64,000 bases of DNA from NCBI RefSeq assembly GCF_053078305.1, contig NZ_CP166879.1; one strand, written 5' to 3'. The position numbers and the translations under genes were made by a program. How positions within the stretch are numbered: position 1 is the stretch's first letter; each line of letters starts with the position of its first letter. The notes under the pieces are model-generated. The model ran no database searches and was not told the origin of the DNA. It saw nothing but the letters and a program-made list of their open reading frames with translations. Shown in pieces: positions 20,580 through 60,334 of the stretch.

Positions 20580-21938
20580 ATGGAACAATATGATCAAATT
20601 GGCGCAAGACTGGACCGCTTGCCTTTGGCCCGGTTTCATTATCGTATATTTGGTATTATAAGCTTTAGTCTGTTATTAACAGGGTTTTTGAGTTACTCCG
20701 GTAATGTCGTCTTAGCAAAGCTGGTAAGCAATGGATGGTCAAATAATTTCCTCAATGCCGCCTTTACCTCGGCATTAATGTTTGGTTATTTCATCGGCTC
20801 TCTTACCGGTGGGTTCATCGGTGATTACTTTGGGCGGCGCAGGGCGTTTCGCATAAATCTTCTCATCGTCGGTATTGCTGCAACAGGGGCCACTTTTGTC
20901 CCTGATATGTACTGGCTCATCTTCTTTCGCTTCCTGATGGGAACAGGAATGGGTGCGCTGATTATGGTTGGCTATGCCTCATTTACGGAGTTTATCCCCG
21001 CGACGGTGCGTGGAAAATGGTCCGCGCGGCTCTCATTTGTTGGTAACTGGTCGCCCATGCTGTCTGCGGCGATAGGTGTGGTGGTTATCGCTTTTTTTAG
21101 TTGGCGGATAATGTTTCTGCTGGGTGGTATTGGCATACTGTTAGCCTGGTTTCTTTCAGGTAAATACTTTATTGAGTCGCCACGATGGCTGGCAGGGAAA
21201 GGGCAAATCGCAGGTGCAGAAAGCCAACTTCGTGAAGTAGAGCAGCAAATTGAAAGAGAGAAGAGTATTCGTTTACCCCCGCTTACTTCGTATCAGAGCA
21301 ACAGCAAGGTTAAAGTAATCAAGGGTACTTTCTGGCTCCTGTTTAAAGGTGAAATGTTACGACGTACATTAGTCGCGATTACTGTTTTAATTGCAATGAA
21401 CATTTCGCTTTATACCATCACCGTATGGATACCGACCATATTTGTTAACTCCGGCATTGATGTCGATAAATCAATATTAATGACCGCTGTTATTATGATT
21501 GGCGCTCCGGTAGGAATATTTATTGCGGCATTAATTATTGATCATTTTCCTCGTCGGTTATTTGGCTCCACCTTACTTATTATTATTGCCGTGTTAGGCT
21601 ATATCTATTCAATTCAGACTACAGAGTGGGCGATTTTAATCTATGGCCTGGTGATGATCTTCTTTTTATACATGTATGTTTGCTTCGCGTCGGCGGTTTA
21701 TATCCCGGAGCTTTGGCCAACGCATTTACGCCTGCGCGGTTCGGGTTTCGTTAATGCCGTCGGACGGATCGTCGCAGTCTTCACGCCCTATGGCGTTGCG
21801 GCATTATTAACACATTATGGGTCGATCACGGTGTTTATGGTACTTGGTGTCATGTTATTGCTCTGTGCGCTGGTTCTCTCCATTTTTGGCATCGAAACGC
21901 GGAAGGTGTCGTTGGAAGAGATTTCTGAGGTGAATTAA
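20580..21938 (+). CDS. ydjE: MFS-family transporter YdjE (452 aa)
   Basis: Track ORF 20475..21938; start chosen at the ATG at 20580 (MEQYDQIGARLDRLP...) to give 452 aa. Confidence 0.85.
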   Translation: MEQYDQIGARLDRLPLARFHYRIFGIISFSLLLTGFLSYSGNVVLAKLVSNGWSNNFLNAAFTSALMFGYFIGSLTGGFIGDYFGRRRAFRINLLIVGIAATGATFVPDMYWLIFFRFLMGTGMGALIMVGYASFTEFIPATVRGKWSARLSFVGNWSPMLSAAIGVVVIAFFSWRIMFLLGGIGILLAWFLSGKYFIESPRWLAGKGQIAGAESQLREVEQQIEREKSIRLPPLTSYQSNSKVKVIKGTFWLLFKGEMLRRTLVAITVLIAMNISLYTITVWIPTIFVNSGIDVDKSILMTAVIMIGAPVGIFIAALIIDHFPRRLFGSTLLIIIAVLGYIYSIQTTEWAILIYGLVMIFFLYMYVCFASAVYIPELWPTHLRLRGSGFVNAVGRIVAVFTPYGVAALLTHYGSITVFMVLGVMLLLCALVLSIFGIETRKVSLEEISEVN

Positions 21939-21990
21939 ATCTTTCGTTGATGGCATCAATTGCCAGATGTGCCACTGACGTGTTTTATTT

Positions 21991-22021
21991 GGCCTACAAT
22001 GCCAGTACAGAATTGTAGGCC
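21991..22021. terminator. Hairpin between the convergent ydjE and pncA genes
   Basis: Perfect 10-bp inverted repeat GGCCTACAAT ... ATTGTAGGCC with an 11-nt loop, lying between the two stop codons. Confidence 0.45.
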
Positions 22022-22030
22022 AGCGTAAAA

Positions 22031-22528
22031 TTACCCCTGTGTCTCTTCCCAGTCTGCCAGCGTATATAGCGTTGCCCCAGCAGCTGACATCTCCATAAAC
22101 GCGTGCGCACTGTCCTGTGGCTGGATATTCACGCCACGACAACCATCGGTAATCACGTTTACCTTATAACCTAACTGTAACGCGTCCAGCACGGTAAACT
22201 TCACGCAATAGTCAGTAGCCAGGCCCATAACGATCAATTCATCGATTTCATGATCGCGTAACCAGTCATCGAGAGAGGTTTTCTGCCGACGGCCGTTATC
22301 AAAAAAGGCACTGTAACTGTCAACTAAAGGATTTTCGCCTTTATGGAACACCGCTGCGATCGCTTTTTGGTGCAGTAACGGATGTAATACCGCTTCACCG
22401 CGCGACTGGCACCAGTCAATCAGGCGGTTAGCGACATCCACCGTACTGTCACCTTCCGGCACGGCGAGCGCGCCACCAGCACAGAAATCATTTTGTAAAT
22501 CGACCAGTAACAGGGCGCGAGGGGGCAT
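22031..22528 (-). CDS. pncA: Nicotinamidase/pyrazinamidase PncA, shortened allele of 165 codons that lacks the central metal-binding loop
   Basis: Starts MPPRALLLVDLQNDFCAGG... and is preceded by an AGGAGA Shine-Dalgarno. The ORF jumps from ...QSRGEAV directly to LHPLLHQKAIAAVFHKG..., so the roughly 48-residue segment of the remembered 213-aa PncA is absent. See findings. Confidence 0.85.
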   Translation of the reverse strand: MPPRALLLVDLQNDFCAGGALAVPEGDSTVDVANRLIDWCQSRGEAVLHPLLHQKAIAAVFHKGENPLVDSYSAFFDNGRRQKTSLDDWLRDHEIDELIVMGLATDYCVKFTVLDALQLGYKVNVITDGCRGVNIQPQDSAHAFMEMSAAGATLYTLADWEETQG

Positions 22529-22538
22529 TGCAGTCTCC

Positions 22539-23555
22539 TTAATCATCCGGCGTCAGTTCGCCGCGCAGGTTTTGGCTCATGGCCTTGCGAATGGTTTCAG
22601 TATCCAGTTCCTGGCTAAGCAGGTAATGCAGTTTGGTTAGCGTGGCTTCTACAGTCATATCTGCACCGCCAATAACGCCAGCATGGGCGAGGGCGTTACC
22701 GGTGGCATAACCACCCATATTCACTTTACCGGACATACATTGTGTCAGGTTGACCACCACAATACCGCGATCGCTGGCTTCTTGTAATTCCTGCAGGAAG
22801 GCTTTGTTTTGTGGCGCATTACCCACGCCATATGAGCGCAGAATCAATGCTTTCACCGGTTGGCGCAGAAAATTGCGCACGACGTCAGCAGAAATCCCTG
22901 GATAAATCGTCACTACGCCAATTGGTTGTGGGGTGATTGGATGAACGATTAATTCCCCTTCACCGTGCGGGGCGGGTGGCGTATTCAAACGACGAATATG
23001 GATACCTGCTTCCAGTAACGGAGGAAGGTTTGGAGAGGCAAACGCATCAAAACCATCGGCATGGGCTTTGGTAGTGCGGTTGCCGCGATACAATCGGTTA
23101 TTGAAAAAGAGCGTTACTTCGTTGATCGGATAATTCGCCGCAACGTACAACGCATTCAGGAGATTAATTTGTCCGTCAGAGCGTAACTCAGCTAGCGGGA
23201 TTTGTGACCCTGTCACAATGACCGGTTTACCGAGATTTTCGAGCATGAACGACAGCGCAGAGGCGGTATACGCCATCGTGTCGGTGCCGTGCAGAATGAC
23301 AAAACCATCATAGTCGTCATAGTGCGCTTTAATATCTTCAGCAATATGCTGCCAGTCTTCCGGCGTCATATCTGAAGAATCCATCAGCGGCGTATATTCA
23401 TGAATGGTGAAATCTGGCATCTCCGGGCGATGGAATTCCGGCATCAGCGCCAGTTGGCGTTGTAGATGACCTGACACCGGAATATAACCCTGCTCGGAAC
23501 GCTGCATCCCGATGGTCCCGCCCGTGTAGGCAACGTAAATTGATTTCTTTTGCAT
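22539..23555 (-). CDS. ansA: Cytoplasmic L-asparaginase I (338 aa)
   Basis: Start at the internal ATG at 23555 (MQKKSIYVAYTGGTIGM...). Confidence 0.95.
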   Translation of the reverse strand: MQKKSIYVAYTGGTIGMQRSEQGYIPVSGHLQRQLALMPEFHRPEMPDFTIHEYTPLMDSSDMTPEDWQHIAEDIKAHYDDYDGFVILHGTDTMAYTASALSFMLENLGKPVIVTGSQIPLAELRSDGQINLLNALYVAANYPINEVTLFFNNRLYRGNRTTKAHADGFDAFASPNLPPLLEAGIHIRRLNTPPAPHGEGELIVHPITPQPIGVVTIYPGISADVVRNFLRQPVKALILRSYGVGNAPQNKAFLQELQEASDRGIVVVNLTQCMSGKVNMGGYATGNALAHAGVIGGADMTVEATLTKLHYLLSQELDTETIRKAMSQNLRGELTPDD

Positions 23556-23708
23556 GATATTGATATGAATGATATCGAAAGAGCAAAAGTATATACGTGA
23601 GGCAGGGGGAGCGCACCTGATACTATGCGGATAAGGAAATATGGGGCGAGACAGCGGGAAGAGGATTAAAAATATGGCCGACGATCTGTCGGCCACTCAG
23701 TACAAGAC

Positions 23709-50970: not shown

Positions 50971-51075
50971 ACCGTCTGACGTGCTACGCCTGTCAGGCCT
51001 ATTCGACTCCTGCAATGTATTGAATTTGCATAGTTTTGTAGGTCGAATAAGGCGTTCACGCCGCATCCGGCGTGA
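50971..51075. repeat. REP/BIME-type palindromic repeats between cho and nadE
   Basis: REP-like units acgcctgtcaggcctat and gtaggtcgaataaggcgttcacgccgcatccggcgtgaac. Confidence 0.6.
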
Positions 51076-57255: not shown

Positions 57256-58026
<771 letters not shown>

Positions 58027-58036
58027 GTAAGGTGGT

Positions 58037-58064
58037 AAGGTCACTCCCCAGGGGACGTGACCTT
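58037..58064. terminator. Bidirectional hairpin between the convergent chbG and katE genes
   Basis: Inverted repeat aaggtcactcccc / ggggacgtgacctt placed between the two stop codons. Confidence 0.5.
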
Positions 58065-58072
58065 ATCCATAT

Positions 58073-60334
58073 TTACGCCGGAATTTTGTCAATCTTAGGA
58101 ATGCGTGACCACACGCGGTGTGCTGCCATCAGCGTTAACAGTTCATCCATAAAACTACCGTCGGCGCTGTCAGCTTCCACAATCCCTTCTTCACCCTGGT
58201 CAGCGACCTTGATTGTTGCTTTAAACTTGCGCGCGTCTCCCGCCAGCGCAATCGGTTTAAGGTGTTTGTAGGCTTCCATCAGGTAGTAGTTGGCATCGCC
58301 GTTGTCAGCGATATCCGCGATATTGCCGCAAGGGACAATGACCGCATCGACCGTCAGCGAAGGCGCACCGGCAAAGGTAGCGGCTATAGGCAACACCGTA
58401 CCGTCATCCGCAGTCACTTCACCCATTCGGGAGTAGAGCAGTTTGGCATGAACGCCTTTGGCCTTCAGGGCCTTGAGAATGGCCAGAAGGTCTGCCGATC
58501 TCACTTCATCATTAAGTAAAATCGCTACCACGCGACCTTTCACATCACCGTCAGGAATGGCGTACAAACTTAAGGATGGATCCTTTTTCAGACCGTTGAC
58601 GTCCGGAGGTGGGGTGATATTCAGCTGGTCATCAGTCAGTTCGATACCGAGATTTTTCGCCACCGCCTGGGCCAGAGTGAGATCAATATGCGCCAGCTGG
58701 TCAACAACGCGCTCACGAATATAGGGACGAACGACTTTGCTTAACTCAAAACTGAAGCCATCGACAATATGACGCTGCTCGAATGGCGTCTGACTTAGCC
58801 AGAACAGACGCGGATGGGAATAATATTCGCCAAAAGATGGACTGCGCTCGCGAACTTTATTTCCTTCCACGCGTTCCTGATATGATTCAAAACCGCCGCG
58901 TTTCGGTCCCGGCGGTGTTTCGCGCGGCCAGTTATCGTTGATCGAGTTCGGTTCGTAATTCGCCGGGTTAGTGTCGATCCCCATACGATGCATGCCATCA
59001 CGCTGGTAGTTGTGGTAAGGGCAGGTCGGACGGTTAATCGGAATCTCATGGAAATTCGGCCCACCAAGACGACTGATTTGTGTATCGGTATAGGAGAACA
59101 AACGTCCCTGCAACAGCGGATCGTTGGTGAAGTCCAGTCCCGGCACGATATGCCCAGGATGGAAAGCCGCCTGTTCGTTTTCAGCAAAGAAGTTATCCGG
59201 GTTGCGATTGAGCACCATTTTGCCGACACGCTGAACGGGCACCAGTTCTTCCGGGATAAGTTTGGTTGGATCGAGAAGATCGAAGTCGAACTTGAATTCA
59301 TCTTCTTCAGGAATCAACTGGAAGCCCAGTTCGTATTCCGGAAAATCACCTGCTTCAATGGCTTCCCACAACTCGCGGCGGTGGAAGTCCGGGTCACGTC
59401 CGGTTAGTTTTTGTGCTTCATCCCAAACGAGTGAGGCTTTACCTGCCAGTGGTTTCCAGTGGAAACGTACAAACGTTGCCTTCCCTTCGGCATTAATCAG
59501 GCGGAAGGTATGAATACCAAAGCCTTCCATGGTGCGGTAACTGCGGGGGATGCCGCGATCCGACATCGCCCACATCACGTTGTGCAGAGTTTCAGGTTGC
59601 AGAGAAACATAATCCCAGAAAGTATCGTGGGCGCTTTGCCCTTGTGGAATTGCCCAGTGTGGTTCTGGTTTTACCGCATGAACAAAATCGGGGAATTTAT
59701 GCGCATCCTGGATAAAGAAGATTGGCGTGTTATTGCCAACAAGGTCAAAAATACCCTCTTCGGTATAGAATTTGGTGGCAAAGCCACGGATATCACGCAC
59801 GGTATCGGCAGAGCCAGCACCACCCTGAACGGTAGAGAAACGTACAAATACTGGGGTGATTTTGTTCGGATCTGAGAGGAAATCCGCTTTGGTGATATCG
59901 CTTAAGCTTTTATATGGCTGGAAATAACCGTGAGCGGCTGATCCACGTGCATGAACAATACGTTCCGGGATGCGCTCATGGTCAAAGTGGGTGATTTTCT
60001 CGCGCAGAATAAAATCTTCCAGCAGCGTTGGACCACGGCTACCGGCACGCAGTGAGTTTTGATCGTCGGCGATGCGCACGCCCTGATTAGTGGTCAGCGC
60101 ATAATTTTCACTGCCTTTGCGTACGTCTTCCAGAGAATTAAGTTTTTCGTTACGCGTATCAGGGGCTTTCAGGCTCCCTGGGGCGGTAGGTTGTGCACCT
60201 GGCGGTGTTGGTTCAGCCGCTGGACGATGAGAGCCGTCCTCAGGTGCCAGTGAGTCCATCCCCGGTTTCGCTTCGCTGGAATCGTGTAGTGGTGACTGGT
60301 GCTGATGTGGGTTCTTTTCGTTTTGTTGCGACAT
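58073..60334 (-). CDS. katE: Catalase HPII (753 aa)
   Basis: 753-aa ORF, recognised as the large-subunit catalase KatE. Confidence 0.97.

Follow-up and report, generated by a model that had tools for sequence, protein, structure and literature searches.

The pncA gene in the stretch of DNA analysed here (64 kb, referred to below as the window) lacks 144 bp of its coding sequence, so that 48 of the 213 residues of the wild-type protein are missing in frame. There is a strong probability that this is the orthologous pncA of Escherichia coli strain 48 after a recent, strain-private deletion that arose by illegitimate recombination, would have cost the enzyme its function and is probably a matter of drift. 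Judging from the residues that are gone, the gene is almost certainly dead.

Extent of the pncA deletion and its genomic setting

When ORFs are called mechanically, a minus-strand reading frame of 171 aa (22031..22546) is obtained, whose ATG falls inside the end of ansA. The true start of pncA is the ATG at 22528, because all homologues begin with MxxRALLLVD, a GGAG motif lies 6 nt upstream, and the stop codon of ansA occupies 22541..22539. The gene therefore consists of 165 codons followed by a TAA stop codon, as a preliminary description of the window had proposed; the start codon chosen there is confirmed by the N-termini of the homologues.

Alignment with pncA of E. coli PS10-3 (642 bp, 213 aa) showed a single gap of 144 bp and nothing else, the 498 retained nucleotides being 100% identical to the wild-type allele. 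This agrees with the precise in-frame deletion of about 48 residues that had been suspected before any alignment was made. The missing block comprises coding nucleotides 141–284, that is residues I48 to Q95 (48 aa). In a script comparison with the wild-type gene, the shared prefix (140 nt) and the shared suffix (358 nt) added up to 498 nt, which is the entire mutant gene; the breakpoint is therefore uniquely placed, with 0 bp of microhomology. Where the wild type has GCGGT, then a block that begins with TATCGCC and ends with GGCGCACA, and then ATTACAT, the window has GCGGT directly followed by ATTACAT. The break falls inside the codon of Val47 (GTT changed to GTA, still Val) and inside that of Gln95, and at the protein level V47 is joined to L96 (GEAV followed by LHPLL). 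In a blastn comparison with K-12, the block boundary with its 144-bp gap was likewise found at 22388/22389. The junction had originally been placed between 22388 and 22387, which holds as the codon boundary between V47 and the following Leu but not as the DNA breakpoint, which is one base away, between 22389 and 22388. It should be noted that the preserved frame carries little weight alone, as about one-third of random deletions are in frame. The coordinates of all features are collected in Table 1.

Table 1. Features of the pncA deletion allele and of the adjacent genes (window coordinates).
Feature	Position	Strand	Basis or remark
pncA deletion allele, encoding PncA without residues 48–95	22031..22528	-	Exact protein WP_044191492.1 / KFD74888.1
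Deletion junction, 144 bp of wild-type sequence absent between two bases	22388..22389	-	Fused codon GTA = 22390..22388, Val47
Retained N-terminal part, residues 1–47 (strand β1, helix α1, first two residues of β2)	22388..22528	-	Translation, wild-type AlphaFold2 model, alignment
Codon of catalytic Asp10	22501..22499	-	Alignment to solved nicotinamidases
Retained C-terminal part, wild-type residues 96–213 and stop	22031..22387	-	Alignments
Codon of catalytic Lys111 (mutant K63)	22342..22340	-	Residue role from PMC3025910
Codon of nucleophile Cys156 (mutant C108)	22207..22205	-	Residue role from PMC3025910
pncA ribosome-binding site GGAG, intact, just past the ansA stop	22535..22538	-	Read from sequence
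ansA stop codon TAA	22541..22539	-	Sequence
ansA, asparaginase I, 338 aa, intact upstream gene, untouched by the deletion	22539..23555	-	ORF, K-12 and PS10-3 annotation, stop-to-stop comparison
ydjE, MFS transporter, 452 aa, intact, convergent downstream neighbour	20580..21938	+	ORF, reference annotation

The gene order ydjE-pncA-ansA-sppA is identical to that of K-12 and PS10-3, which puts the shortened gene in the orthologous pncA position. Because its ribosome-binding site is intact, it is expected to be transcribed together with ansA, as before, and translated. Polar effects are not expected, since pncA comes second in the ansA-pncA pair and the next gene, ydjE, is convergent. Upstream of ansA, in the spacer to sppA, the window shows a net 13-bp deletion with respect to K-12 (23668-23675; 10 + 1 + 2 bp), which falls in the putative ansA promoter region. 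On the other side of the locus, E. coli CP131_Sichuan (NZ_CP053720.1:1977903-1978600) carries an IS1B in the 92-bp spacer between pncA and ydjE, with pncA itself intact. This strain was considered as a comparable pncA null and rejected, given that the element is located between pncA and ydjE and not within pncA; insertions are tolerated in the spacer that follows pncA.

Outside pncA, the window runs collinear with K-12 between yeaL and ydjM (97.9–98.9% identity). No other broken gene was found in the 64 kb, and the statement that the remaining genes have their K-12 lengths was essentially right: apart from those in pncA and chbG, all indels with respect to K-12 are intergenic, and the only other coding one is a net gain of 9 bp (3 codons) at 57730-57745 in chbG (ORF 57256..58026, plus strand). 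The ChbG product is about 91% identical to K-12 ChbG, compared with about 98–99% for its neighbours, which may reflect allelic replacement or a patch of recombination. The chbG-katE spacer (58033-58076) measures 44 bp, as against 255 bp in K-12 MG1655, and contains a short GC-rich hairpin (GGTCAC...GTGACC); the K-12 spacer presumably has extra copies of a REP-like repeat. The only Rfam match above the gathering score in the whole window is the ES036 (CssrF) sRNA (50995-51037, minus strand, 42.9 bits), located near the cho-nadE region, by offset from the K-12 map.

Occurrence of the allele

An exact-sequence look-up retrieved the 165-aa protein from NCBI as KFD74888.1, WP_044191492.1 and YBJ05444.1. 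It forms a one-member cluster, and two NCBI contigs encode it, one of 383,853 bp and one of 5,941,328 bp, which belong to different assemblies that possibly share reads. The shorter contig is JPQG01000004.1, from assembly GCA_000736735.1, and the window is identical to it over all 6,498 bp compared. A synthetic edit was rejected on these grounds, as both the identical protein and 6.5 kb of DNA around its gene are in GenBank. JPQG00000000 belongs to E. coli strain 48, which was isolated from roe deer, came from a screen of Shiga toxin-producing E. coli (STEC) and yielded the first known subAB2-3, a subtilase cytotoxin variant (PMC5323612).

The distribution of the allele was examined in several collections. 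A megablast search with the 801 bp from 21900 to 22700 matched 5,425 of 5,426 complete E. coli genomes, and among the matches listed nearly all consist of two pieces spanning 945 bp, meaning that the references carry 144 extra bases. The full-length 642-bp gene (at least 80% coverage) is present in 5,418 of these genomes. The wild-type E. coli protein is therefore 213 aa long, as the preliminary description had it, and the outcome that had been named as fatal to the deletion, a wild-type PncA of about 165 aa, did not occur. In one complete genome nothing matches the pncA region, and seven more hold less than 80% of pncA in one place, for example NZ_LR536430.1, where the gene is split into two places; a handful of other natural pncA lesions thus exist among the complete E. 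coli genomes.

A junction-centred 54-mer, designed with halves too short to seed alone, gave no match covering the junction in the 5,426 complete genomes, the 1,547 hits being 28-base half matches. The nearest 25-kb match in that collection is 99.5% identical, the source genome itself being absent from it. A Shigella origin, considered in view of this imperfect match, was rejected, as the record proved to be that of E. coli strain 48. Exact searches with the junction 24-mer, GTGAAGCGGTATTACATCCGTTAC, returned zero matches both in metagenome contigs and in a collection of one genome per species. At the protein level, a search of 5.8 billion proteins was summarized by its best 120 homologue clusters, in which the query alone has 165 aa and the rest have 187–225 aa, nearly all 212–213. 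A natural short subfamily was rejected because no other entry of about 165 aa occurs among those 120 clusters. Within the data searched, then, the allele is private to one strain, and the gene is otherwise almost universally intact in E. coli. The 498 retained nucleotides show no further change with respect to the circulating wild-type allele, which points to a recent event. A literature search yielded no report of a natural E. coli pncA null allele, nor of the present deletion.

An allele with so narrow a distribution raises the question of an artefact, in which a wild isolate with an intact 642-bp pncA would have lost the 144 bp during assembly, sequencing or laboratory passage before it was sequenced. 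All the records of the allele are tied to a single strain, the junction was found nowhere else (complete E. coli genomes, metagenome contigs, representative genomes), and no independent read-level (Logan) record of the 165-aa protein appears in the collection searched. On the other hand, the same product was called on both of the assemblies mentioned above, the sequence of the region is unique and contains no repeats across the endpoints that could collapse, and the flanks are free of errors across 6.5 kb. It is rare for an assembler to lose 144 bp of unique sequence so cleanly. We consider an artefact very unlikely, and treat the deletion below as a genuine allele of strain 48.

Effect on the active site and the fold

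By descent, the gene is pncA: it occupies the same locus, its retained sequence is identical, and its product scores above the family cut-off. With the NCBIfam profile NF008623 (cut-off 174) the mutant protein obtained 292.8 bits in two stretches, as compared with 417.5 bits in one stretch for the wild type. The better stretch, residues 46–164, matches profile positions 94–212, and positions from about 48 to 93, metal ligands included, are missing. PF00857 (isochorismatase-like) is also recorded for the 165-aa protein. NCBI names WP_044191492.1 a bifunctional nicotinamidase/pyrazinamidase because the NF008623 score exceeds the cut-off; the equivalog label thus survives the loss of the active-site metal, and score thresholds miss an internal loss of active-site elements. 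As an enzyme, in contrast, the protein lacks three defining features of a nicotinamidase, namely the metal site, the substrate lid and, by prediction, the complete β-sheet.

The functional residues were located through solved homologues. E. coli PncA (213 aa) aligns end to end with the nicotinamidases of Acinetobacter baumannii (2wt9, E = 7e-42), Pyrococcus horikoshii (1ilw) and Mycobacterium tuberculosis (3pl1), the M. tuberculosis orthologue matching it with E = 2.3e-27, whereas the 165-aa protein aligns to solved nicotinamidases in two separate pieces. In the P. horikoshii enzyme the Zn ligands are D52, H54 and H71 and the catalytic triad is D10, K94 and C133; in M. tuberculosis PncA (MtPncA) the Fe ligands are D49, H51, H57 and H71, the triad is D8, K96 and C138, and W68 belongs to the lid (PMC3025910). 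Alignment to these two proteins places the E. coli equivalents of the metal ligands, D52, H54, (H58) and H86, all within the deleted residues 48–95. The lid tryptophan, W83 of the WPDHC motif, is deleted together with the whole loop between the His hinges. The metal-binding motifs (D52-W-H54, H58 and W83-P-D-H86-C87) are thus inside the missing block, just as the preliminary description had supposed, and its further remark that the catalytic Asp, Lys and Cys are kept is also correct, since D10, K111 and C156 are present in the mutant and do not vary in the alignments. The aligned homologues from Enterobacteriaceae (80–86% identical overall) conserve the block that is deleted here.

The deletion also reaches into the core of the protein. 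The strand β2 is an internal strand of the isochorismatase-like sheet. This sheet is six-stranded and parallel in the nicotinamidase fold (PMC3025910). In AlphaFold2 models, which do not predict stability and were both built here from shallow alignments of 19–20 sequences, the wild type (pLDDT 77.5) has β2 at residues 46–52, a helix at 61–64 and a β-hairpin at 71–82, while the mutant (pLDDT 70.3) has a 3-residue remnant of β2 and no strand call for β3, the strand carrying the catalytic lysine. A Foldseek search with the wild-type model gave nicotinamidases as the best PDB matches (2wta, E = 1.3e-16; 34% identity to 3pl1). Mapped on this model, the deletion takes five of the seven residues of β2 (48–52) and all of the following helix and hairpin. 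In the mutant model, pLDDT falls below 50 at residues 50–55 and 64–70, around the junction and beside K63, which may be read, if only weakly, as consistent with a local collapse.

Experiments on the orthologue are more telling: in MtPncA, each of the substitutions D49G, H51A, H57D and W68L, made singly, leaves little or no activity and reduces the melting temperature (PMC3025910). As any one of these changes is already sufficient there, and all the corresponding residues are lost here at once along with a core strand, a null enzyme is expected. If the 165-aa product accumulated, it would be unable to bind the catalytic metal or to form the nicotinamide pocket; the truncated polypeptide, which may still be translated, would be catalytically dead and probably unstable.

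It could be argued instead that the shortened protein folds and still acts as a cysteine hydrolase, independently of metal or with an altered activity, much as metal-free members of the isochorismatase-like superfamily do. The triad D10, K111 and C156, its surrounding motifs and the oxyanion-hole region are intact, the frame is preserved, the NF008623 score remains well above its cut-off, and the metal-free relatives YcaC, RutB and biuret hydrolase are detectable homologues. These relatives, however, still have strand β2 and the intervening region, and no natural homologue with an architecture like that of the mutant was found among the best 120 clusters. Moreover, the parallel sheet is deprived of one of its internal strands, the model of the mutant shows disorder near the junction and at the catalytic Lys, and MtPncA is destabilized even by point mutations in this region (PMC3025910). 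We attach next to no probability to a retained or altered activity, and a loss of function is preferred.

Origin, consequences and known parallels

A repeat search found no direct repeats bridging the endpoints of the deletion. A slipped-strand event was rejected: a GTGAAG hexamer is present near both ends, but its use would remove 141 bp and leave another junction, and the actual junction has 0 bp of microhomology. Nor is a hairpin-mediated deletion convincing, as no inverted-repeat pair joins the two ends; the inverted repeats observed are weak, a 10-nt arm that overlaps the left end but pairs with retained sequence upstream and not with the right end, and a 7-nt hairpin lying 9 nt inside the right end. 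With no shared bases and no bridging repeats, microhomology-independent illegitimate recombination or end joining is, by exclusion, the most likely origin.

The expected consequences can be outlined from the pathway and from the engineered K-12 knockout. Strain 48 would be without nicotinamidase/pyrazinamidase activity, and the prediction is that it tests pyrazinamidase-negative and cannot use nicotinamide. Neither imported nicotinamide nor that set free within the cell, e.g. by the sirtuin CobB, would any longer be converted into nicotinate for salvage through PncB, and the supply of NAD would depend on de novo synthesis or on nicotinate. The nutritional cost hinges on nadA, nadB and nadC, which are outside the 64-kb window, as is pncB. 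By analogy with the engineered K-12 ΔpncA strain, intracellular nicotinamide would rise and partly inhibit CobB. In that strain, intracellular nicotinamide is about 2–2.5-fold higher, growth on M9 glucose is slower (0.56 vs 0.72 per hour), and acetate overflow, flagellation and motility are increased, as in ΔcobB; nicotinamide inhibits the CobB sirtuin with an IC50 of about 52 µM (PMC5734772). The same phenotypes are predicted for strain 48.

Such phenotypes invite the question of whether the loss was selected, be it because nicotinamide damps CobB (with effects on motility and acetate), because the activation of a toxic nicotinamide analogue is blocked, or because of adaptation to a host niche as proposed for pig-adapted Salmonella. 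K-12 ΔpncA phenocopies ΔcobB and migrates about ten-fold further (PMC5734772), and in S. Typhimurium U288 the lineage-specific gene losses began with the disruption of pncA, which also occurs in S. Choleraesuis (PMC8065163). Against this stand the slower growth of ΔpncA on minimal glucose (PMC5734772) and the singleton status of the allele, which shows neither spread nor recurrence (0 of the 5,426 complete genomes, 5,418 of which keep the full gene); besides, nothing in the sequence separates selection from drift. We regard a selected loss of function as unlikely. The boldest readings, namely a stable miniature isochorismatase-fold protein that has the triad but no metal site and exerts a new hydrolase activity or a regulatory effect, or a loss positively selected in deer-associated STEC through damping of CobB, appear highly improbable. 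The allele is probably the product of neutral or mildly deleterious drift and not a designed feature. In itself it is of little consequence, being a strain-specific null of a non-essential NAD-salvage gene with effects that are predictable from the K-12 knockout.

When compared with known systems, the deletion is a rare but ordinary type of mutation with precedents in Salmonella and M. tuberculosis. The closest reference is PncA of E. coli K-12 (WP_001135066.1, 213 aa, a bifunctional nicotinamidase/pyrazinamidase, EC 3.5.1.19, and the same protein as in PS10-3): locus, start codon, ribosome-binding site and stop codon are the same and the 165 retained residues are identical, the difference being the absence of residues 48–95, with the metal ligands, the lid residue W83 and most of β2.

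In M. tuberculosis, resistance to pyrazinamide classically arises through lesions in pncA. These loss alleles concern the same protein family, and lesions at D49, H51, H57, H71 and W68 abolish activity and destabilize the enzyme (PMC3025910). They are, however, drug-selected and recurrent, whereas only one deletion is at issue in strain 48, a commensal/STEC E. coli for which no selective agent is known.

In S. Typhimurium U288 and S. [quoted passage not shown] That of strain 48, in contrast, is an in-frame deletion observed in one strain, and the window holds no further broken gene. Natural pncA nulls are rare in E. coli, and the allele joins these few enteric precedents.

Finally, the physiology expected of strain 48 is like that of the engineered K-12 ΔpncA strain, but the latter is a whole-gene laboratory knockout, whereas a truncated polypeptide is possibly made in a wild STEC. 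Strain 48 could therefore serve as a natural ΔpncA background, in a wild STEC, for the link between nicotinamide and CobB.
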